Shown here piece by piece: positions 53,456 to 64,000 of a stretch of DNA of 64,000 nt. The translations under genes and the position numbers were made by a program. Origin of the DNA: an uncultured Candidatus Rokubacteria bacterium. GTDB taxonomy: Bacteria > Methylomirabilota > Methylomirabilia > Rokubacteriales > CSP1-6. Below the pieces are notes generated by a model. That model made no database searches, was not told the origin of the DNA, and was given only the letters and a program-made list of their open reading frames with translations. The DNA lies in assembly GCA_963771355.1 (NCBI GenBank), contig CAVYTA010000006.1, positions 1,280,001 through 1,344,000 of the forward strand. Direction: 5' to 3'. The first letter of the stretch is position 1, and each line of letters opens with the position of its first letter.

Positions 53456-53728
53456 GGACCACCTCCGGGCGGCATCATAGCAGACCTTCGAAAGAGGGCC
53501 CGCCTCACCGAATAGGCTCCACTTCTCGCGCGTCTTTCCCATAGCGCCGCCGCCTGGGAACACCGCCTCACGCGTGGGGGTTCTAGGTCACACGGCGATG
53601 AAACGAAGAGCGGGTTCACGCCCTCTAAACATTAGGTGAACGTGCACATTCAACTGGCAGCGCTGAGATCACGCCCCCGGAACGGGTCAGCAAGGCCGAA
53701 GCGGGCCAACAAGGCCGGAAGGATCGCG

Positions 53729-55321
53729 ATGACCTTTAGGGAAAGCGAAGGCCAAATCTCCCCTGATACTGTAGCTGTTTGGGCGGGAGCACCTACGACG
53801 CGGCGTAAGGATCGCGCGAGCGGGCCCTCCATCGGCCCCCGATTGGTGGCTCGCCGCAAGCCCTCGCTCCTGGCTCCGGTCGCGCTCGGCGAGGGGCTTC
53901 CCGGCGCCCTGCCCGATGCGGGAGACGACGAGGTCGAGAGCCCGGTGGCGGTAGTGCACGCCGCGGAGGAGCCCGGCCTCAGCGAGGAGGCGCTCCGTCC
54001 CTCGCCGGCCGAGGGCGAGGACCCGGTACGGATTTACCTGAAGGAGATCGGCAAGGTCCCCCTGCTGACCGCGCGGCAGGAGGTCGAGCTCGGCCAGCGG
54101 ATCGAGGCGGGCCAGATCAAGCTGCGTGGCGCCCTGGCTGACATCCCCCTGGCGATCGGCCGGCTGCTCACGCTGGTGGACGGGGTGCGGCGCGGCGAGG
54201 TCCCCCTCGACGACGTCATCATCCTGCCCGAGGGCGGCGAGCCCGCCCCCGAGCAGGTCAAGCCGATGATGGCTGCCTTCGCCCGGATCCGGCGCCTCGA
54301 GCGCGAGTCCGAGCGTATCCGGGTCTCGCTCGCGACCAAGCGTCGGGCGGCCGCCTCCACGCGGGCGAGCTACCGCGACTGGATCGCCCAGAACCGGGCC
54401 TCGGTCCGCGGCATCGTCGAGCGACTTCCCCTCAAGCCGGCGCTGGTGGACGGGTTCGTCGCCGAGGTACGCCGCGTCGCCGGCTCGATGCGGGTCGCGC
54501 GCGACGGCGCGGAGCTGCGCGGGCTCGAAGCGCAGGCGGGCCTGGCGCGGAAGCCGCTGCTGACCGCCCTCGCCGAGCTCGAGCAGCACGATCGCGTGGT
54601 TCGCCAGGCCAAGAAGGAGCTGATGGAGGCCAACCTCCGGCTGGTGGTCTCGGTGGCCAAGCGCTATCTCGGGAGCGAGCTGTCCCTCCTCGACCTCGTC
54701 CAGGAAGGCAACCTCGGGCTCATGAAGGCGGTGGATCGCTTCCAGTACCGGCGCGGGTTCAAGTTCTCGACCTATGCCACGTGGTGGATCCGGCAGGCCA
54801 TCACCCGTGCCATCGCCGACCACTCGCGCACCATCCGCATCCCCGTGCACATGGTGGAGACGCTCAACCGCATCTCGCGCGTGAACCGGACCATGCTCAA
54901 CGAGATGGGCCGCGAGCCCACGCCCGAGGAGCTGGCCCGGCGCACCGGCGTGCCGGCGCGGAAGGTCCGGCTCATTCTGGAGTCGTCGCGGAAGCCGCTG
55001 TCGCTGGAAACACCCATCGGAGAGGACTCCGACCTGGGCGATTTCCTGGAGGACAAGTCGGCCGAGTCCCCCAACGACACCCTGATCAGCCAGGACCTCA
55101 CGCATCAGGTCGAGCGCGCGCTGGGCACGCTCTCGCCCAAGGAGAAGGAGATCCTCCGCCTCCGCTTCGGCATCGGCGAGGAAGGCGAGCACACCCTCGA
55201 GGAAGTGGGCAAGCGCTTCGCAGTCACGCGCGAGCGAATCCGACAGATCGAGACCAAGGCCCTGCGCAAGCTGCGTCATCCGCTGCGCGGCCGCGCCCTC
55301 AAAGCCTTCGTCGAGAACTAG
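53729..55321 (+). CDS. RpoD-like (group 1/2) sigma-70 factor, stand-alone
   Basis: [11 protein letters not shown] (region 1.2), [45 protein letters not shown]; start codon uncertain. Confidence 0.95.
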
Positions 55322-55775
55322 ACCGCCCGTCCGCCGCCTTCTCCCCCCCGGGGGAGAGGGTGCGGGCCGACGCCCGCGTCATCGCGCTCTCGAGGATCCG
55401 CATCGCCATGGCGATCGGGCCCAGGATCCCCGCCACCAGCACCCCGAAGATCAGCTCGTTCAGCAGGGGATCCGCGCGACCGGTCAGCCACAGCACGCCC
55501 CAGAGCGCCAACACGCAGCCGAGCGCGACCAGGAGCAGACGGCGGCCCCGACGGAGCCGCCGCTCGGCGGCGTCGAAGATCGAGCCGCGTCCGGCCGAGA
55601 CATCGGCGCGGGCCGCCTCCGCCGCGATCCGGGCCGCGCCGCGGGCGACGAGGCCGGACGCCGTCAGGGCCAGCACGATGACGATGACGCCCCAGACCAG
55701 GAGCCACGGCACCAGCGCGGCCAGCCGCGGCATCGCGGCGGCCAGGTGGGGCGTGAGCTCCGCCACCGTCGGCAT
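55299..55775 (-). CDS. Hypothetical membrane protein (about 3 TM helices)
   Basis: Three hydrophobic segments; last gene of the carboxylase run; overlaps the sigma factor 3' end convergently. Confidence 0.65.
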
Positions 55776-55794
55776 GGCTACCGGTGGCGGGCTG

Positions 55795-57354
55795 CTACAC
55801 GGGCATGACGCCGTGCTTCTTCCACGGCCGCTCCACCTTCTTGGTCCGCGCCATCGCGAGGGCCCGGATGAGCACGGGGCGCGTCTCCCGCGGATCGATC
55901 ACGTCGTCGATGAAGGCCCCGCCCGCGGCGATATAGGGATTGATGAGCCGGCGGAACTCCTCCACCCGCCGCGCCCGCTCCTCGTCCGGATTCGCCGCCC
56001 CCGCGATCTCCTTCCGGAAGATGATATTGGTGCCGCCCTCGGGGCCCATCACCGAGATCTCCGCGGTCGGCCAGGCCACGATGAGGTCGGCCTCGTAGGC
56101 CTTGCCGCACATGACGAAGTACCCGGCGCCGTACGCCTTGCGCAGCACCACCGTGAGCTTGGGCACGGTGGCCTCGCTCACGGCATACAGCATCTTGGCC
56201 CCGTGGCGAATGATGCCCTGCCGCTCCACCTTGGAGCCGACGAGGAAGCCCGGCACGTCCTGGAGGAACAGCAGCGGGATGTGGAACGCGTCGCACAGCA
56301 TGATGAACCGGGCCGCCTTGTCGGCCGCGTCCACGTCGAGCGCGCCGCCCAGCACCATGGGCTGGTTGGCCACCACGCCCACCGGTCGGCCTCCCAGCCG
56401 GGCCAGCGCGGTGACGAGGTTCCGCGCCCACCCCGGCTTGATCTCGAAGAAGTGCCCGTGGTCCACCACCGCGGCGATGACCTTCTTCACGTCATACGCG
56501 CGGCGCGCGCTGTCCGGCACCACCGTGAGGAGAGCCTCGTCCATCCGGTCCGCGGGATCGTCGCAGGGGAGCACCGGCGGCGCCTCCAGATTCGACGAGG
56601 GGAAAAAGGAGAGATACTCCTTCACCGCGGCGAGGCAGGCGGCGTCGTCCGCCACCTCGAGGTCGGCCACCCCGGAGATCTCGGTGTGGACCTTGGATCC
56701 TCCCAGCTCCTCGGGCGTGACATCCTCCCCCACCACCGCCTTCACCAGCGGCGGCCCGCCGAGCGCCATGTGGCTGGTCCCCTTCACCATGGGGACGAAG
56801 TCGGACAGCGCGGGGATATAGGCCGTGCCCGCTGCGCCCGGCCCCATCATGGCGGCCACCATGGGGACCACGCCGGACATGATGGATTCCTCCCGAAAGA
56901 GGTAACCGGACTGGGCGAAGCTGGAACCGATCGCCTCCTGGATGCGCGCGCCCGCGGAGTCGATGAGCCAGATCATCGGCATGCGCTTGGTGAGCGCGAT
57001 CTCCCGCGCGCGATTGCACTTCACTTCCGCGGTGCGCCCCATGGAGCCCGCCATCACCGTGAAGTCGTAGGCGATGAGGGAAGCGGGCCGCCCGCCGATC
57101 TGGCCGAAGCCGGTGACCACGCCGTCGGCCGGCGTCTCCTTGCCTCGCATCGCGGGTGAGATATTGGCGTGGGTGGCGAGGAGACCGATCTCCTGGAAGG
57201 AGCCCGCGTCGAAGAGGCGGTCGACTCGCTCGCGCACGGTGAGCTTGCCCTCGCCGTGCTGCTTCGCAATGGCCTCGGGCCCGCCCATGGCCAGCGCCCG
57301 CTGGCGGCGCGCGCGAAGCTCCTCCACCAGCTCCTTCATGCCCATGGCGGACAT
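55795..57354 (-). CDS. Acyl-CoA carboxylase carboxyltransferase (PccB/MccB-like)
   Basis: GKLTVRER, PADGVVTG, DSAGARIQE, DVPGF, RKAYGAG, DVIDPRETR, KKHG. Confidence 0.95.
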   Translation of the reverse strand: MSAMGMKELVEELRARRQRALAMGGPEAIAKQHGEGKLTVRERVDRLFDAGSFQEIGLLATHANISPAMRGKETPADGVVTGFGQIGGRPASLIAYDFTVMAGSMGRTAEVKCNRAREIALTKRMPMIWLIDSAGARIQEAIGSSFAQSGYLFREESIMSGVVPMVAAMMGPGAAGTAYIPALSDFVPMVKGTSHMALGGPPLVKAVVGEDVTPEELGGSKVHTEISGVADLEVADDAACLAAVKEYLSFFPSSNLEAPPVLPCDDPADRMDEALLTVVPDSARRAYDVKKVIAAVVDHGHFFEIKPGWARNLVTALARLGGRPVGVVANQPMVLGGALDVDAADKAARFIMLCDAFHIPLLFLQDVPGFLVGSKVERQGIIRHGAKMLYAVSEATVPKLTVVLRKAYGAGYFVMCGKAYEADLIVAWPTAEISVMGPEGGTNIIFRKEIAGAANPDEERARRVEEFRRLINPYIAAGGAFIDDVIDPRETRPVLIRALAMARTKKVERPWKKHGVMPV

Positions 57355-57425
57355 CCTTCCGGCGGTAATTCAGTTGCGCGCATTTTTTCCACCTTCGCTC
57401 GCCTCGCCTTCGGCTGCGGCTCGCC

Positions 57426-57932
57426 CTACCCTTTCACGACCGACGTGCGGTAGGAATTGATCCCGGTATCCGGCGGGGAGCCGCTGATGAGGGTGAGCAT
57501 GGTGGCGGCCTCGCTGCGGTGGTGGGTGGCGTGGTTCACCACGTGCTGTAGGAGCGCGCCCAGGGCCACGCGGAACTGGACTCCCTCGGTGTTCCGGTAC
57601 TCGATGGGCCGCGTGAGGTCGGCCTCCCCCAGCGCCTCCACGAAGGCGCGCTGCTCCGCCTCCAGCGCGTCCCAGCGCGCGCGGAGATCCCCCATGCTCG
57701 GGAAGTCGGCGTCACCGGACAGGCGCTTGGGCGACTCGCCCTTCCAGCGCGCGAGCCAGATCGAGTCGGCGCCGTACATGTGGGAGAACATTCCCTTGAG
57801 GGTGGGAAAGCTCCAGTGCTTGCCCAGGTCGCGCGTCACCGGCTCCGCGCCCAGGCCCGCCGCAATATCGAAGAGCCGGTGATTGGCCCAGCGGTGATAG
57901 TCGTAGTGCTCGCGGATCAGCGCCGTGCTCAT
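57426..57932 (-). CDS. DinB-family protein
   Basis: YHRWAN, SHMYGAD.IW, QHVVNHATHHRSE. Confidence 0.92.
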   Translation of the reverse strand: MSTALIREHYDYHRWANHRLFDIAAGLGAEPVTRDLGKHWSFPTLKGMFSHMYGADSIWLARWKGESPKRLSGDADFPSMGDLRARWDALEAEQRAFVEALGEADLTRPIEYRNTEGVQFRVALGALLQHVVNHATHHRSEAATMLTLISGSPPDTGINSYRTSVVKG

Positions 57933-57964
57933 GTCGGTCTCCCTCGCTTCCGGTCTTTATTCGC

Positions 57965-58180
57965 CTACTCGAGAACGGCGACGATGTCGCCGTCCTGGAC
58001 CGTCTGGCCCTCCGCCACGCGGATCTCGCGGACCACCCCCGCGCGCGGAGCCTCCACGGGAATCTCCATCTTCATGGACTCGAGCACGATGACGGGGTCG
58101 CCCGCCGCCACCTTGTCCCCCGCCTTGCTGGTGATCTGGAAAACCACGCCCGTGATGTGGGCCTTGACGTCCTCAGGCAT
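57965..58180 (-). CDS. Stand-alone biotin carboxyl carrier protein
   Basis: [10 protein letters not shown] biotinylation motif; 71 aa. Confidence 0.95.
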
Positions 58181-59517
58181 TGAACGCTCCTTGTTCGACC
58201 ATCTGGGTATGCACCCGGCCGGCGCGGAACGCCGCGCTCTCGAGCACGCGCCGGTGAAACGGGATGACGGTGCGGATCCCCTCCACGACGAAGCCGTCCA
58301 GCGCCGCCTGCATCCGTGCGAGAGCCTCCTCGCGGGTGGCGCCCCGGGTGATGAGCTTGGCCAGGAGCGGGTCGTAGTGTACCGAGACCTGCACCCCTTC
58401 CGCGACCCCGATCTCCAGCCGCACGCCGGGCCCCTCGGGCACGGCGAGGCGGGAGATCGTCCCGGGCGAGGGCATGAAGTTCTTGGCGGGATCCTCGGCG
58501 TAGATCCGGCACTCGATGGCGGCGCCGCGCTGGACGATCTCGTCCTGGCGCCACGGCAAGGGCTCGCCCGCGGCCACCCGCAGCTGGGCCTGGACGAGGT
58601 CCAGGCCCGTCACCTCCTCGGTGACCGGATGCTCGACCTGGAGCCGGGTGTTCATCTCGAGGAAGTAGAACTCGGAGCCCTTGACGATGAACTCCATGGT
58701 CCCCGCGTTGACATACCCGACCGCCCGCGCGCCCGCCACCGCGGCGGCGACCAGCTCCGCCTTCACGCCGGGCGCGAGCGCGGGCGCGGGACTCTCCTCG
58801 ATGAGCTTCTGGTGACGGCGCTGGATGGAGCACTCGCGCTCGTGCAGGTGGACGACCTCGCCCCGCGCGTCCCCGAACACCTGCACCTCCACGTGGCGGG
58901 CCTCGGCGAGATACCGCTCCACGAAGAGCGCGCCGGAGCCGAAGGCGGCCTGGGATCGCCGCTCCGCGGAAGCCCACGCCGCGGGCAGCGTGGCGGCGTC
59001 CGGCACCCGCACCATGCCGATGCCGCCCCCGCCCGCCGCCGCCTTGAGCATCACCGGATAGCCGATGCGATCGGCCAGCGTGACGTGCCGCTTCGAGCGA
59101 ATCAAGCGCGCCCTCGCTGCCGGGCACCACCGGCACCCCCGCGGCCTGCATCCGGCGGCGCGCCTCGACCTTGTCGCCCATCTGCTGGATGACGCGCCAC
59201 GGCGGCCCGATGAAGACGAGCCCGGCCTCCTCGCAGGCCTTGGCGAAGCGCCAGTTCTCCGAGAGGAATCCATACCCGGGATGGACGGCCTGCGCGCCCG
59301 TCTCGCGCGCGGCGGCGAGGATGCGGTCGACGTTCAAATAGCTGTCCCGGGCGGGCGCCGGGCCGATCGACACCGCCTGGTCGGCGTCCCGGACGTGAGG
59401 CCAGCCGGCGTCGGCCTCGGAGTAGACCGCGATCGCCTGCACCCCGAGGGCCCGGCAGCCGCGGATGACCCGGCGGGCGATCTCCCCGCGATTGGCGACG
59501 AGGACGCTCGAGAGCAC
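58173..59517 (-). CDS. Biotin carboxylase, frameshifted near 59082
   Basis: LVANRGEIA and [10 protein letters not shown] in one frame; [39 protein letters not shown] in the next. One extra base joins them. Confidence 0.93.
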
Positions 59518-59523
59518 GCGCGG

Positions 59524-60495
59524 TCAGGCGGAGCGGGCGGCCCGAACGTGGGCCACGTCGAGGGCCTGTGCGCGCCAGCCCTCCGGCCCGCCCGCCCAGC
59601 GGGCGGCCAGCGTCACCGATCCGTCGGGACCATCCAGGCGGAGCTTCAGGAGCAGCTGCCGGCCGATGCGCGTGGCGGCCACGATCTCGTGGTGGGTGAA
59701 GCGGGCGGCCGCGAGCACGGAGTCCTCGGCCTCACTCCAGACGGCGTCGCCGGCCAGCCAGCGGCGCACGGCGGGGGCGTCGCGCGCGACCAGGGCGTCA
59801 CCCAGCGCGGCGGCGGCGGCCCGCAGGTCGTCGGGCACGGGCCAGCGGGCGGGCCGGGTCTCGAGACGGATGAACTCCTCCGCCTCCGTCATGCCCTCGG
59901 GCGAGACCGGCGCCGGCACCGGCGCGGGCAGGCCCTCGCCGGTGACCCCGCCCGCGGCGGCGAGCAGCCCACCCAGCCGCTCCGCCCACGCGGCCGCGCG
60001 GGTCTCGGCCGCAGGCGTGGTGGCGAGATGTGCGAGCACGCGCTCGCCCGCCGTGATGTGGCGGCGCTCGTCCTCGGCGCAGCGCGCGAGGATGCGACGG
60101 GTGGGCGGCTCGTAGACGGCGTTGGCGCTGGCGAGGTCGCGCTCGTAGGCGGCCAGCAGATGGGGCTTGAGCACGCGGTACACGCCCACCAGCCGCTCCA
60201 CCGTCAGCTCCGGCGTCTCCGCCGACTCCAGGGCGTCCATGAAGGCGACGAAGCCCTCCCCGGCGGGCTCCGACTCCTGGGCATGGGCGCGCAGCTCGGG
60301 GAGCCGGCGACCGAGCGCGTCGGCGTGCTGGGCATTGTCCCAGACGTGCCGGCCCATGAGGAGCTTGGCGGAGATTTCGGGCGTCAGGGCGAGCCAGCCG
60401 CCCAGGACGCGCATCAGGCGCTCGGTGGCGTAGCGGTAGTGGCGAACGCGGCGGGCGGACTCCTCGACCGAGTGGGCACCTTCCAGCGGGTACAT
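59524..60495 (-). CDS. Ferritin-like protein with partly degenerate diiron motifs plus a C-terminal NTF2/SnoaL-like domain
   Basis: Helical N-domain with ATER, WDNAQH, EDERRH; Pro-rich linker; alpha+beta C-domain. Confidence 0.7.
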   Translation of the reverse strand: MYPLEGAHSVEESARRVRHYRYATERLMRVLGGWLALTPEISAKLLMGRHVWDNAQHADALGRRLPELRAHAQESEPAGEGFVAFMDALESAETPELTVERLVGVYRVLKPHLLAAYERDLASANAVYEPPTRRILARCAEDERRHITAGERVLAHLATTPAAETRAAAWAERLGGLLAAAGGVTGEGLPAPVPAPVSPEGMTEAEEFIRLETRPARWPVPDDLRAAAAALGDALVARDAPAVRRWLAGDAVWSEAEDSVLAAARFTHHEIVAATRIGRQLLLKLRLDGPDGSVTLAARWAGGPEGWRAQALDVAHVRAARSA

Positions 60496-60500
60496 CGAGG

Positions 60501-61256
60501 CTAGTAGACCTGCGAGCGCTGCGTGGTCTTGATGAGGCGCTCGATCTCCTCGTCGGTGAAGCCGCCGAGCTGGCGCGCCTCCGTGGCGATCGAGATCAGC
60601 ACCGCGTCGTGATCCCCGTCCTGCCGCACGCCGCCCAGGTTGAAGCGCTCGTCGATGGTCTCCTGGAACTCGATGGCGCGGCGTCGACGCTCCGGATCGC
60701 CCTCGGTGAGCTTGGTGAGCCACTTCGAGCCCATGCGCACGTGGGTGATCTCGTCGGCGAGGACGAAGTCCACCGCGCGCTCCAGGATGGGATCGCCCAT
60801 CTTCCGCGCGATGTGGACGAGCTGATTGAACACGTCGCAGGCGAGCCCCTCGAGGCCGCGGTTCACGCCCGCCACCCGCGCCGCCGCGTCCTCGGCGCAG
60901 GCGCAGCGCCAGAGGATGGTGGTCTCCGGGAACTCCCCCACATAGCCGTCCAGGTGCTCGAGGAGCCGGAGATAGATCTCCAGGTGGCGGGACTCGTCCC
61001 AGACCTGGCGGGCCATGTCCAGGGTGAACTCCCAGGGCGCGTCGGGAAAGTCGTAGACGCTGCGCCCCGCGCCCTCCATGGCCTGCATCTCGCCCACCAT
61101 GATGCCGTGGACCCGCTCCTTGATGGACTCGCGGCTGCCGAGGTCGGGAAAGGGCGTGAGACCCTGCTCGACCTTGAGCTGCGCGACGTCCCGGGCCCGC
61201 ATGCGGACGAAGCGCTCCTCGCGGGCCAGCTTGTCGTAGGCGATCGGGCGATCCAT
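60501..61256 (-). CDS. DUF455-like ferritin-fold diiron protein
   Basis: HGIMVGE, F.DAPWEF..DMARQVWDESRH, GLEGLACD, ADEITHV: a complete E/ExxH/E/ExxH ligand pattern. Confidence 0.85.
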   Translation of the reverse strand: MDRPIAYDKLAREERFVRMRARDVAQLKVEQGLTPFPDLGSRESIKERVHGIMVGEMQAMEGAGRSVYDFPDAPWEFTLDMARQVWDESRHLEIYLRLLEHLDGYVGEFPETTILWRCACAEDAAARVAGVNRGLEGLACDVFNQLVHIARKMGDPILERAVDFVLADEITHVRMGSKWLTKLTEGDPERRRRAIEFQETIDERFNLGGVRQDGDHDAVLISIATEARQLGGFTDEEIERLIKTTQRSQVY

Positions 61257-61294
61257 GAGTACCCCTTCCCGGCGAAATGAACCGCGGTTCATTC

Positions 61295-61323
61295 AGTCTA
61301 GTCGAAGCTCGGGTCGAAGGCAA
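61295..61323 (-). promoter_or_regulatory. Sigma70 promoter of the ferritin-like/carboxylase operon
   Basis: TTGCCT-17 nt-TAGACT, about 40 nt upstream of the DUF455-like ATG. Confidence 0.65.
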
Positions 61324-61467
61324 TGCACCCCGCCGGGCGATCTCCTGATCGAGAAACGGATCGGGCCGATCAACGGTTGCCGCCTCCCGCCGGCCGAAGC
61401 CGCGGCGGCGCAGCGTCACCTCATCGAGGAGGGTCCCCCTCGATCGCGAGTGCTTGATTGAAGGGTG

Positions 61468-61516
61468 GCCGGAGGCGACGACGGCCGGCCTCGACGCCGG
61501 CCGCCGCCCCTCCGGC
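61468..61516 (-). terminator. About 20 bp GC-rich hairpin after the binding-protein gene (terminator or mRNA stabiliser)
   Basis: GCCGGAGG-GGCGGCGGCCGGC / GCCGGCCGTCGTC-g-CCTCCGGC. The mismatches are G-U pairs only on the minus strand. The U-tract is weak. Confidence 0.55.
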
Positions 61517-61528
61517 GGGAACCGCCGA

Positions 61529-62704
61529 TTAGAAGGTCAGCGGATCGGTCAGGCGCACCCAGCGCCCGCCTTTCACCACGGCCAGGAACGAGGAGTTGGC
61601 GCCCTGATGCTTGTCGGGGCCGAAGCTGGCCTCGGGGCCGTTGAAGATGTCGCGGTAGCTCTTGATGGACTCGAGCGCCTTGACGAAGTTCTCGGTGGTC
61701 AGCTCAGGGCCGGTCTTCTCCAGGCCCAGCACGGTCAGGTCGGCGGCCACGTGCCCGTAGATCGCGCCGATGTTCGGGTCCACTTTGTAGCGGTCCTTGT
61801 AGCGGTCGAACCACTTCTGAGCGGCCGGGCTCAGCGTGTCGTGATAGGGCATGGCGGTGAGGCCCATGGCGTAGAGCCCTTCGGTCACGCCGCCCTGGGC
61901 CGCGGCCACGAAGAGATCGTAGCTGGCGGCCGAGCCGAGGAAGTCGACGTCGGTCCAGCCGATCTTCCGCGCCGTCGCGTAGGGGACGATCGAGTCGCGC
62001 ACGATGGTGCCGAGCACCACCAGATCGCAGTTGGCGGCCTTCAGCTTGGTGATCTGGGCGCTGAAGTCCTGGTCGGTCGGCTTGTGGGTGACCGTCTCCA
62101 CGATCTTGAGCTTCATCTTCTCCGCCTGCGCCTGCACACCGTCCACCACCTCCTTGCCGAAGTCGGTGTCCTGGTACATGGCGCAGAGGGCCTTCTTGCC
62201 CTTCTTGGTCACGAAGTAGTTGATGCCGGCACGCACCTGGTCCACGTAGCTGGCCGCGCCGTAGAACTTGAGCTTGTGGAAGGGCTCGTACATCGAGCGC
62301 GCCGCGGAGAGCGGAAAGAGGTTCGGCACCCCGGCGTCGAACTGGTCCTTGAAGAGCGCGTTGTTCATCGGGGTGCCGAGGCCGGCCACGATGGCGAAGA
62401 CCCGGTCGCGGTTGATGAGCTTGGCGCCGACCTGCACCGCGCGCGGCACCTGGTACTGGGTGTCCTCGACGACCAGCCGGATCTTGCGGCCGTTGACGCC
62501 GCCCGCCTCGTTGACCTCGTCGAAGCGCATCTTCACCGCATTCGACGACGAGACCCCGTAGGTGGCGGCGGGCCCGGAGAGATCGGTATGCATGCCGAGC
62601 ACGATCTCCGCCTTCGTCACGCCGCGGGTCTCCTTCTGGGCGGTGGCCACCCCGGCCACCGCCACCGCGGCGGCCAGCACGCTGACTGCCAGTAGCTTTC
62701 TCAT
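61529..62704 (-). CDS. ABC transporter substrate-binding protein (LivJ/K family)
   Basis: Signal peptide, GMHTDLSGP, NEAGGVNGRKI, YQDTDFG. Confidence 0.93.
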   Translation of the reverse strand: MRKLLAVSVLAAAVAVAGVATAQKETRGVTKAEIVLGMHTDLSGPAATYGVSSSNAVKMRFDEVNEAGGVNGRKIRLVVEDTQYQVPRAVQVGAKLINRDRVFAIVAGLGTPMNNALFKDQFDAGVPNLFPLSAARSMYEPFHKLKFYGAASYVDQVRAGINYFVTKKGKKALCAMYQDTDFGKEVVDGVQAQAEKMKLKIVETVTHKPTDQDFSAQITKLKAANCDLVVLGTIVRDSIVPYATARKIGWTDVDFLGSAASYDLFVAAAQGGVTEGLYAMGLTAMPYHDTLSPAAQKWFDRYKDRYKVDPNIGAIYGHVAADLTVLGLEKTGPELTTENFVKALESIKSYRDIFNGPEASFGPDKHQGANSSFLAVVKGGRWVRLTDPLTF

Positions 62705-64000
62705 GCCTCGCTCCTTTCGTACATGCCGTCGATGAGGTCCTTGTACTTCACGTTGATGAACGTGCGCTTCAGCTTCATGGTGGGGGTGAGCTCCTCGTCC
62801 TCCGCGGTGAGGAGTTGCTCGATCAGCCGGAACTTCTTGATGGTCTCCACCCGGGCGAGCTCCTTGTTCACCCGCTCGATCTCGCTCCAGATGAGATCCT
62901 GCACCTCGGGCGCCCGGCAGAGCGAGGTGAAGTTGCTGAAGGGGACGTCGCGCTCCTGGGCGAACTGGGCCACCGTCTCGTGGTCGATCATGACCAGGCA
63001 GGAGAGGAACTTGCGCCGGTCGCCGATCACCACCGCGTCGGAGATGTAGGGCGAGAACTTGAGCTGGTTCTCGATCTCGGAAGGAGTGACGTTCTTGCCC
63101 CCGGCGGTGATGATGATGTCCTTCATGCGGTCGGTGATCCGCACGAACCCTTCCTCATCCATGGTCCCGACGTCGCCGGTGTGGAGCCAGCCGTCCACCA
63201 CCGTCTCCGCCGTCTTGTCCGGCTTGCCGTAGTAGCCGAGGAAGACGTGCGGGCCCTTCAGGAGGATTTCGCCGTCGGGGGACAGGCGGACGTGCGTATC
63301 CGGCCGGGCGGTGCCCACCGTGCCGAGCTTGATCCGGTCGCGCGGCATGGCGGTGGCGAGACCGGTATTCTCGGTCTGGCCGTACACCTCCGTCATGTTG
63401 ATACCGAGCGCGAGGTACCAGCGGATCAGGTCCGGGGCGATGGGGGCGGCGCCGGTGGCCGCGCCGCGCGCCCGGTGGAGCCCGATGGAGCGCTTGACGT
63501 TGTCGAGCACCAGAAAGTCGGCGATGCGGAAGGCGAGGCGCTGGAGCAGGGACGGGCGCCGGCCCTGGATCTTTCCCTCCGCCAGGGCGAGGCCGACCCG
63601 GATGGCCTGTCCGTAGGCGAACCGGCCGAGCCAGGTGGCGTCGCGCATGCGGAGGGCCACCCCGGAGTAGAACTTCTCCCAGATGCGGGGCACCGCGAAG
63701 AACAGGGCGGGGGCGACTTCACGGATGTTGTCGGGCACCGTGTCGATGCTCTCCGCGAAGTTCACGGTGGAACCGGTGTAGAGCGGGTTGAAGACCGTGA
63801 ACGTCCGCTCGGCGATGTGGCACAGCGGGAGGAAGGAGAGCTGCTGGTCGCCCTCACGCAGCTCGGTGATGAAGTCGGCGTAGGCGAGCTGGAAGAGGAT
63901 GTTGCGGTGGCTCAGCATGGCGCCTTTGGGGGGCCCGGTGGTGCCGGAGGTGTAGACCAGGATGGCCAGGTCTTCGGGCTTCGGGATCTCGACCATGCGG
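62701..64000 (-). CDS. Long-chain acyl-CoA synthetase (AMP-binding), partial at window edge
   Basis: YTSGTTGPPKG, YGQTE, WLHTGD, ITDRMKDIIITAGGKN, ELTPTMKLKR. Confidence 0.95.
   Translation of the reverse strand, partial: RMVEIPKPEDLAILVYTSGTTGPPKGAMLSHRNILFQLAYADFITELREGDQQLSFLPLCHIAERTFTVFNPLYTGSTVNFAESIDTVPDNIREVAPALFFAVPRIWEKFYSGVALRMRDATWLGRFAYGQAIRVGLALAEGKIQGRRPSLLQRLAFRIADFLVLDNVKRSIGLHRARGAATGAAPIAPDLIRWYLALGINMTEVYGQTENTGLATAMPRDRIKLGTVGTARPDTHVRLSPDGEILLKGPHVFLGYYGKPDKTAETVVDGWLHTGDVGTMDEEGFVRITDRMKDIIITAGGKNVTPSEIENQLKFSPYISDAVVIGDRRKFLSCLVMIDHETVAQFAQERDVPFSNFTSLCRAPEVQDLIWSEIERVNKELARVETIKKFRLIEQLLTAEDEELTPTMKLKRTFINVKYKDLIDGMYERSEA

Follow-up and report, generated by a model that had tools for sequence, protein, structure and literature searches.

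The window examined here is a stretch of 64,000 nucleotides (nt) from contig C6 of the 5.5-Mb genome (99.8% complete) of an uncultured Candidatus Rokubacteria bacterium. Toward its end, on the minus strand, a run of seven genes (55299..61323) begins with two adjacent ferritin-like genes, here called A and B, and continues into the parts of a biotin-dependent acyl-CoA carboxylase. Gene A (60501..61256, 251 aa) encodes a DUF455 ferritin-like protein by Pfam, the predicted catalytic diiron (alpha) subunit of an enzyme; gene B (59524..60495, 323 aa) encodes, by alignment and structure model, a degenerate ferritin-like protein with an NTF2-like domain, the putative beta subunit. Behind them lie a stand-alone biotin carboxylase (BC; 58173..59517, frameshifted near 59086 in this assembly; identified by Pfam and by comparison with relatives), a stand-alone biotin carrier (BCCP; 57965..58180, 71 aa, MKM motif intact; NCBIfam PRK05889), a DinB/YfiT-family protein (57426..57932; Pfam), a carboxyltransferase (CT; 55795..57354; identified by scores, tree and residues), and a hydrophobic open reading frame (ORF) of 158 aa (55299..55775). 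All seven had been listed in an earlier note made from the sequence alone and are present where it placed them, as are the gaps of 6 nt or less among the first four: A and B are 5 nt apart, B and BC 6 nt, and BC and BCCP overlap by 8 nt; the gaps thereafter are 32, 71, and 19 nt.

The sigma-70-type promoter that the same note had seen (61295..61323, minus strand) is also there, with a −35 TTGCCT at 61323-61318, a 17-nt spacer, and a −10 TAGACT at 61300-61295. Relatives carry the same elements ahead of A, a loose −35/−10 pattern drawn from 87 upstream regions matching 59 of those regions; a scan for consensus promoters and terminators scored 0 sites at the promoter, and 13 of the 87 regions have a leaderless-type −10 box. 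Two features had gone unmentioned: the NTF2-like C-terminal domain on B, and a perfect palindrome of 18 bp (61293-61276), a predicted operator, which lies directly after the −10 box and overlaps the position where transcription is expected to start.

Conservation was read from two sets of relatives. Within the order Rokubacteriales, gene neighborhoods were counted over 86 related loci and 87 upstream regions from two families of the order; the closest loci carry the titles Rokubacteria or Methylomirabilota. A distant set comprises 80 metagenomic loci in three clades (labeled Actinomycetota, Acidimicrobiales, and one clade without a name), 32 of them reaching at least 3 kb downstream and 19 extending 3 kb to either side. 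Of the 83 genomes of the order that were searched, 67 have a match to gene A with at least 78% identity (counted from the table of matches); the other 68 genomes of the class gave no match to it better than E 2.7e-5. Across the order A is 78–96% identical, while the carboxylase genes vary. What is constant is the core of A plus B; the seven genes together do not form a conserved unit.

Protein A matches PF04305 (DUF455) at 95.1 bits, against a gathering cut-off of 34.3. It has the ferritin-like diiron pattern, a four-helix bundle with E, ExxH, E, ExxH; the predicted ligands (E56, E88xxH91, E136, and E169xxH172) are kept in 48–49 of 49 aligned rows, and H50 and E61 are invariant as well. B has no DUF455 match, and its sole Pfam signal is a sub-threshold one to MiaE_2. 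Its ferritin-like part spans approximately residues 1–195 and its NTF2-like domain approximately 220–320; in all 55 rows a non-ligand (Asn, Leu or another residue) fills the second ligand position, and in 53 of the 55 Lys fills the fourth. The NCBIfam search gave no family for either protein, and searches of PDB sequences with A, with a profile of its distant homologues, and with a profile of B found no real relative (a match to Crov588 was rejected as a repeat artefact). None of the genome's remaining ferritin-like genes is a paralogue of A or B; they are of AurF-like or short types.

The two genes keep company closely. B follows A directly in 86 of 86 Rokubacteriales loci; in the distant set the two are adjacent, in either order, in 54 of 80 loci, and in 32 of the 40 with at least 1 kb on both sides. 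They also occur as single polypeptides: 11 of 150 representative proteins are B-A fusions, in which the N-terminal half resembles B and the C-terminal half is DUF455 and keeps both ExxH motifs, in clusters whose members are labeled Bacteroidota, Chloroflexota, and Polyangiaceae. Five apparent A+B chimeras (P0242, P0268, P0296, P0318, P0344) were excluded from this count as probable read-through fragments. Modeled together, A and B give a predicted complex that scores 0.90, whereas none of three controls exceeds 0.00; contact agreement between runs is at least 97%, partner predicted local distance difference test (pLDDT) values are at least 92, and the mark set for this score is reached by 116 of 157 solved pairs and by 2 of 215 mismatched pairs. 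Because of the ligand pattern, the constant adjacency, the fusions and the predicted complex, A is likely to be the catalytic alpha subunit, and B the metal-free beta subunit, of one enzyme.

The separate structure models have a pLDDT of 86.5 (A) and 89.8 (B). The best fold match of A is aldehyde-deformylating oxygenase (ADO; Z 16.2, root-mean-square deviation 3.0, 188 residues aligned, 15% identity), with R2-like ligand-binding oxidase (R2lox), PaaAC, monooxygenase subunits, and ferritins as runners-up within about 3 Z. PaaAC, named in the earlier note, is among the fold matches; ADO comes out best, with values nearly tied. For B, the top Foldseek rows are toluene monooxygenase beta chains, PaaAC chains, and, for its tail, NTF2-like proteins (all E > 0.001); when these matches were re-scored, ADO came first (Z 17.7).

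Like A/B, PaaA/PaaC (PDB 3PVR, 3PW8, 4II4) and the toluene, phenol, and methane monooxygenases combine a catalytic with a ligand-less homologous subunit, encoded by adjacent genes and forming a heterodimer (predicted for A/B), and both are among the fold matches. A/B differs in having no sequence-family match to PaaA/PaaC in Pfam, NCBIfam or the PDB, in a block where no PaaB-, PaaD- or PaaE-like, gamma, effector or reductase genes were seen, and in lacking an aromatic pathway context, the genes after A/B in the 86 loci being those for BC, carrier, DinB, and CT. The NTF2-like domain of Rokubacterial B, the existence of B-A fusions, and the predicted control by a FadR repressor (below) also set it apart. 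A/B appears to work like PaaAC, but not to be a member of that group.

Beyond these sets, no relative was found among viral contigs, and a search of the ESM Atlas returned DUF455 or unnamed clusters only. Homologues in Binatota are about 60% identical. The plasmid search gave one distant DUF455 protein, in Geobacillus and among transposases, with an N-terminal half unlike B by BLAST; it is uninformative. At least half of the sequence words of the window occur in 14 sequencing runs, with shares of at most 0.26 in RNA runs, none of which was used as evidence.

The palindrome offers a second line of evidence, on when the pair is expressed. In the form MTGAAY-N4-RTTCAK it lies behind the −10 box in 66 of the 87 regions before A. 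The genome has five exact core sites, all intergenic: one before A; one before a TetR gene that is followed by genes for enoyl-CoA hydratase, short-chain dehydrogenase, SCP2, and polyhydroxyalkanoate (PHA); and one each before an acyl-CoA dehydrogenase pair, a MoxR/VWA operon, and an arginine-repressor-like gene, the last probably unrelated. From 2 to 6 sites per genome were found in 41 of 41 genomes, against a total of 1 match over the whole set for the reversed control. The 81 sites fetched with their surroundings, which are part of those listed and mostly skip sites already known at A, are all intergenic: 20 precede the acyl-CoA dehydrogenase pair, 18 the TetR-enoyl-CoA hydratase operon, 10 thiolase, 9 the MoxR/VWA operon, 8 AurF-like diiron genes, 5 gene A, and 5 other genes, and 6 have no gene called nearby.

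The TetR protein encoded behind the second site, which lies 11 nt before the gene (G000 C6:1240322-1240903), is an orthologue of YsiA/FadR (TetR_C_4, 102 bits; PDB 3WHB, 145 bits, E 1.8e-41; next family, 57 bits). In B. halodurans, each FadR dimer is reported to bind a 16-bp inverted repeat of the same form, and B. subtilis FadR to be released by C14–C20 acyl-CoA (PMC5397183, available text). The palindrome is thus a predicted operator of a Bacillus-type FadR (TetR) repressor; and because it also precedes fadR, acyl-CoA dehydrogenases, and thiolase across the family, A/B probably belongs to a fatty-acid degradation regulon, de-repressed through FadR by long-chain acyl-CoA. As far as the Bacillus FadR (YsiA) regulon is described in the same text (PMC5397183), the two have in common an orthologous TetR protein, a 16-bp inverted-repeat unit, autoregulation, and beta-oxidation targets; here, however, the inverted repeats are mostly single rather than tandem, and two kinds of unstudied diiron proteins, the MoxR/VWA operon, and PHA genes are added.

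Some members and relatives of this regulon may be noted for themselves. The AurF-like genes with a FadR-type site include L137:515-1525 and L195:839-1903; the AurF-like genes of this genome (C6:1862451-1863416, C5:228804-229865, and C6:1070812-1071819) have no exact site. The MoxR/VWA operon, a MoxR-type AAA ATPase with a CoxE-like VWA protein, is a recurrent member (L123:3116-6203, in this genome G000 C6:1779112-1782202). MoxR/VWA pairs often mature metalloenzymes, and this operon could serve the diiron proteins. A palindrome unlike the FadR-type site, TTGACCG-N2-CGGTCAA, stands before the pair or before A in at least 7 loci of the Acidimicrobiia clade (L273, L279, L282, L286, L296, L297, L299).

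The carboxylase genes have a different history. BC and carrier follow B in most Rokubacteriales loci, and both families of the order have loci with the full arrangement A-B-BC-BCCP-(DinB)-CT. On the tree of gene A (a single-gene tree with several weak nodes), BC changes state approximately 9 times and CT 14 times; these repeated changes, together with the full order in both families, suggest an ancestral carboxylase module that is being eroded. Among 75 readable relatives, 10 lack BC or keep a remnant of it, and 3 more have it at full length with a frameshift; genome-wide it is found in 46 of the 64 good genomes of the order, the denominator for all genome-wide carboxylase counts given here, by a strict cut-off that misses broken copies. 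In the window, the carboxylase that the earlier note called complete does have all its genes, but BC carries a single surplus base near 59086 when compared with five relatives, and its coding sequence falls into two frames, one with the Pfam N-terminal domain and the other with the ATP-grasp and C-terminal domains. At the closest locus (L031, 95% identical) it is intact, at 447 aa, and among 36 genes of this assembly that could be tested, 2 seem to be frameshifted; an assembly error and a real lesion are both possible.

The carrier (87 bits against PRK05889, cut-off 75) is the most persistent part of the carboxylase module, being present in 68 of 72 loci and retained intact in 9 of the 10 that lack BC. 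In one clade (L042, L049, L051, L052, L054, L056, L061, L062, L066, L069), genes for an acyl-CoA ligase, short-chain dehydrogenases, an enoyl-CoA hydratase, and an acyl-CoA dehydrogenase are inserted between BC and the carrier. The DinB gene is common in related loci but not constant, and is sometimes duplicated. Its three-histidine pattern (H51, H134, H138) we take, from the family, to be a metal triad, and the protein may be, as others of its family are, a thiol transferase.

CT is missing from many loci: of 64 readable at its position, 29 have it, 2 have a scar, and 33 are without it, and an orthologue is found in 27 of the 64 good genomes. It appears to be ancestral in the block and lost in most lineages. 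Its whole-sequence scores favor PccB (520 bits) over methylcrotonyl-CoA carboxylase (MCC; 302) and geranyl-CoA carboxylase (GCC; 250). A guess that motif segments by themselves would rank MCC first was wrong, as two active-site segments also put PccB-type enzymes first. In a tree of 19 sequences, with references named by their gene neighbors, CT forms its own clade between PccB (support 100) and MccB/AtuC/YngE (93), with a support of 52 for this placement; it falls outside both the PccB clade and the MccB+AtuC clade, each of which has a support of 100 without CT. The genome's own PccB, 47% identical to CT, adjoins methylmalonyl-CoA mutase. The reading of CT as a plain PccB was dropped because of the tree and the residue comparison.

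For the residues, pocket positions were matched through alignments and the tree, and their correspondence is to be taken as putative. Two of them are those of MCC Ser187 and Tyr422, which reportedly have a role in that enzyme. CT has Phe413 at the second, equivalent to D422 of S. coelicolor PccB, and F or Y is found there in 25 of 25 orthologues read; MccB and AtuC have Tyr, and PccB-type enzymes Asp, Ile or Cys, so that CT resembles MccB, AtuC, and YngE in its aromatic residue. D422 of the S. coelicolor enzyme is reported to face the acyl group (PMC7835884, available text). Ser149 of CT occupies the position of GCC Gly162/MCC Phe191, which is reported to set the size of the pocket (PMC4673880, available text); it is Ser in 6 of 6 aligned orthologues, Tyr or Phe in PccB-type enzymes, and Gly in AtuC. 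With Phe MCC-like, a Pro at the Ser187 position PccB-like, and Ser GCC-like, the pocket suggests a bulky substrate, and alpha and gamma carboxylation would both be compatible with it. Set beside the MCC and GCC beta subunits as described in PMC4673880 (available text), CT shares the aromatic residue, a GGPPLVKA-type segment, and the small residue of GCC, but scores far below its PccB values, and the alpha subunit is split into BC and a bare carrier. An analogy with these carboxylases, as drawn in the earlier note, thus fits the pocket residues in part; the whole-sequence scores and the weakly supported tree position do not speak for it.

The genome has another carboxyltransferase. An orphan YngE-like CT (L124:3022-4545, in this genome G000 C6:644021-645544) has no BC or carrier gene beside it and no operator site in this genome; it is found in 58 of the 64 good genomes, and is 61% identical to the CT of a Bacillus operon of BC, carrier, lyase, and hydratase genes, and 42% identical to the CT of the block. 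The yng operon degrades leucine. The block resembles the Bacillus yng-type carboxylase in having a separate BC (51% identical), a very short carrier (70 aa in Bacillus; 41% identical), and a CT of 510–520 aa, but the true YngE-like CT (61%) lies elsewhere in this genome, the adjacent CT is a clade of its own, and there is no 3-hydroxy-3-methylglutaryl-CoA lyase, hydratase or dehydrogenase in the block.

At the distant loci the carboxylase disappears: no BC, carrier or CT was found near the A homologues at 0.001 as E cut-off (0 of 80 loci, 32 of them with at least 3 kb downstream), and an acyl-CoA ligase was found near 6 of 80. A recurring link between the ferritin-like pair and carboxylase genes therefore holds within Rokubacteriales but is absent from the distant loci; it is a Rokubacteria-only, lineage-specific add-on. 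In one actinobacterial clade (that of P0262), A/B lies among thiolase, acyl-CoA dehydrogenase, ligase, and ferredoxin genes, and at four loci of the actinobacterial clade the gene directly upstream of the pair encodes a 2x[4Fe-4S] ferredoxin.

The reading preferred here is that A/B is a two-subunit, O2-activating diiron enzyme acting on long or branched acyl-CoA and switched by FadR, with the carboxylase in parallel; resting as it does on sequences and models, it stands close to an even balance. We infer iron binding, the use of O2, FadR binding, an acyl-CoA substrate, and the A/B reaction itself. Long-chain acyl-CoA would lift FadR off its operator, and A/B would be expressed with the fatty-acid breakdown genes. 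The assembled A-B complex would take electrons from a donor that must be encoded elsewhere, since there is none in the operon, and activate O2. It would then hydroxylate or desaturate long or branched acyl-CoA that is poorly handled by ordinary beta-oxidation, so that beta-oxidation could continue. BC, BCCP, DinB, and CT would have joined behind B in the ancestor of the order, as a parallel carboxylase under the same switch; it would act on bulky acyl- or enoyl-CoA left from branched fatty acids and be dispensable for A/B, and its BC and carrier might also be able to serve the orphan YngE-like CT. Of the earlier note's proposal this keeps the diiron pair and its tie to acyl-CoA catabolism, with A and B as catalytic and structural subunits, but not the adjoining carboxylase as an obligatory step. 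In a bolder form, and one we consider unlikely as a whole, DUF455 alpha/beta proteins would be an unrecognized class of two-subunit diiron oxygenases that in Rokubacteria start a fatty-acid rescue route by desaturating or hydroxylating a long branched acyl-CoA, a new CT subfamily, standing between the lineages of alpha and gamma carboxylation, would fix CO2 on the product, and the scaffold would have been reused on ribosomal peptides.

Several points weigh against the preferred reading. The fold likeness of A is spread across many ferritin-like families, with no Foldseek row at E 0.001, and the A-B complex may owe its score to a resemblance to alpha/beta diiron pairs of solved structure. Of the 87 upstream regions, 21 lack the operator, among them 6 of 6 from the second family, which have leaderless-type promoters. 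One of 11 permuted palindromes gave 6 matches in the genome, against 5 for the real one (the others gave 0–1), so that the site count in one genome is not proof; the regulon case rests on the position of the sites and on their target genes. No lipid genes lie close to many of the distant loci (the P0252 and Acidimicrobiia clades), and more distant A/B modules sit in peptide-modification clusters, so that the scaffold does not fix the substrate. Finally, the ancestral BC-BCCP-CT order and its near-overlap with B would fit a closer coupling of A/B to the carboxylase.

That coupling is the substance of the first alternative, a linear pathway in which A/B oxidizes or desaturates an acyl-CoA and the adjacent three-subunit carboxylase or, in lineages without its CT, one using the YngE-like CT, carboxylates the product, as MCC and GCC do with enoyl-CoA. 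The A-B-BC-BCCP-(DinB)-CT order in both families, with its gaps of 5, 6, and −8 nt, speaks for it, as do the conserved Phe/Tyr (25/25) and Ser (6/6) of the CT pocket and the near-universal YngE-like CT in the order. Against these stand the presence of CT in fewer than half of the good genomes, the many changes of BC and CT state while A stays, the lack of any carboxylase part near the 80 distant A homologues, the lack of an operator site before the YngE-like CT here, and the broken BC of this assembly; we regard a linear pathway as doubtful. The fuller version in the earlier note, in which an acid is imported, activated, oxidized, and carboxylated, is not supported: distant A/B pairs are without a carboxylase (0/80, with 3 kb or more downstream in 32 of these loci) and mostly without a ligase (6/80), and the LivK-type cassette is directly upstream of A in 1 of 81 loci. 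CT is moreover absent from most genomes, BC has been repeatedly lost, and a single one of the 86 loci has the membrane gene, all while A is conserved.

As a second possibility, A/B might act on a free fatty acid, a fatty aldehyde or another lipid, in the manner of ADO-, R2lox- or UndA-like enzymes, and feed or trim substrates for beta-oxidation or PHA. ADO and R2lox, which act on or bind long fatty chains, are the best folds of both subunits (Z 16–18), and the regulon includes SCP2 and PHA genes. Their identity to A and B is, however, 12–19%, their Z-scores are nearly tied with those of other families, A has no Ald_deCOase Pfam match, and A/B has no reductase partner gene; ADO and R2lox are single-subunit types, and we know of no ADO-, R2lox- or UndA-like enzyme that is an alpha/beta pair. 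A free-lipid substrate seems quite improbable.

The 71-aa carrier could itself be the partner of A/B, which would then modify the carrier, its cofactor or a tethered group. Its intact survival next to B in nearly all BC-less loci would be explained, and distant modules do occur in clusters with candidate precursor peptides; but there is no carrier gene near the 80 distant A homologues, and so small a gene may have been kept for the carrier's use by other BC and CT subunits of the genome. This we hold to be very unlikely. The same grade of improbability attaches to a role of A/B in redox protection or iron handling (as a ferroxidase or peroxide scavenger co-induced with beta-oxidation and not acting on any organic compound). 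Folds of Dps, bacterioferritin, and Mn-catalase do match at Z 12–15, and the block follows an isc operon and DNA polymerase IV; A, however, has the extra helices of substrate-oxidizing families (188–204 residues aligned, against approximately 140 for ferritins) and a promoter and operator of its own, and an obligatory metal-free partner is typical of oxygenase hydroxylases.

Least of all, with next to no probability, A/B would be BioE-like and cleave long acyl-CoA to pimeloyl-CoA for biotin synthesis, which would account for the biotin-related genes next to it: BioE is reported as a ferritin-like diiron oxygenase on C14–C18 acyl-CoA/ACP with a ligand-dependent repressor (PMC12704756, available text), which recalls the fold, predicted substrate, and predicted control of A/B, but it is a homodimer encoded beside bioFDBA, whereas here late biotin genes (bioF, D, B) were not found in the genome or nearby (no BioB over the cut-off, and nothing matching Bacillus queries for BioF, BioD, BioB or BioW), and bioA- and bioF-like genes stand upstream at 1 of 86 loci. 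The main text of PMC12704756 has no mention of DUF455. At that one locus (L103:3427-7793), the bioA- and bioF-like genes and a radical SAM gene are inserted divergently before A; it is also the sole locus to have lost both BC and carrier.

A literature search, covering listings and the beginnings of abstracts, few subscription journals, and no supplements, gave no account of the locus or of a DUF455 function. The locus offers handles on this family: a co-expression partner subunit, a regulator that names the class of inducer (long-chain acyl-CoA), and a short list of substrates. If the preferred reading is right, a soluble diiron oxygenase of the alpha/beta type, acting on fatty acyl chains, would be known from abundant soil bacteria, and the CT would add a clade between the two accepted acyl-CoA carboxylase lineages. 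The carboxylase genes should not be taken as a proven continuation of the diiron step.

The DUF455 proteins of the peptide-modification clusters are perhaps more novel than the finding presented here. At L112:2132-8819 (G079) and L111:3403-8519 (G103) there is a DUF455 triple of beta, alpha, and alpha; the same cluster type at L113:6325-7427 has a single DUF455 alpha in a truncated locus. These clusters also encode an asparagine-synthetase-like enzyme, a PqqD-like and an HPr-kinase-like protein, and an S26-like peptidase, and in one case a putative flavoprotein, labeled by sequence appearance. Candidate precursor ORFs (L112:5061-5213, L113:6325-6468) have a YxxP leader motif, and Trp-Trp and Cys in the core. 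The triple is possibly an undescribed diiron enzyme modifying peptides that are made by the ribosome and altered after translation (RiPPs). Elsewhere, an unannotated gene of 200 aa follows A in 13 distant loci.

Around the block, the neighbors vary. The LivK-type gene and acyl-CoA ligase that had been reported upstream are indeed there (61529..64000, minus strand): the former at 61529-62704, 272 nt from A, and the latter, a long-chain acyl-CoA ligase, from 62701 to beyond 64000, forming the end of a LIV-type ABC cassette. A ligase cassette is found upstream in 26 of 86 loci (19 on the same strand, 7 on the opposite), in two versions, and DNA polymerase IV is directly adjacent upstream in 42 of 86; LivK and ligase are a variable neighbor outside the conserved unit. 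Past the LivK stop lies a long G+C hairpin without a U-tract (61468..61516, minus strand), which the consensus scan did not list as a terminator. The fold energy over 61431-61528 is −64 kcal/mol, a raw value without shuffle comparison, and the hairpin may separate the upstream transporter transcript from A.

Farther upstream, past the end of the window (G000 C6:1348961-1359722), is the isc operon, part of a string conserved in the order: by sequence appearance, it is followed by DsrE-like genes, a second cysteine desulfurase with an IscU-like gene, and cysE, and then by a 60-aa helix-turn-helix-like protein, an HD protein, and DNA polymerase IV. At the other end of the block, the hydrophobic 158-aa ORF, which the earlier note had called a membrane protein, has zero Pfam or NCBIfam matches and is a recent add-on outside the conserved unit. 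A sigma-70 family gene on the plus strand (53636-55321) converges on the block, its stop overlapping the end of this ORF, and marks the end of the block in most relatives.

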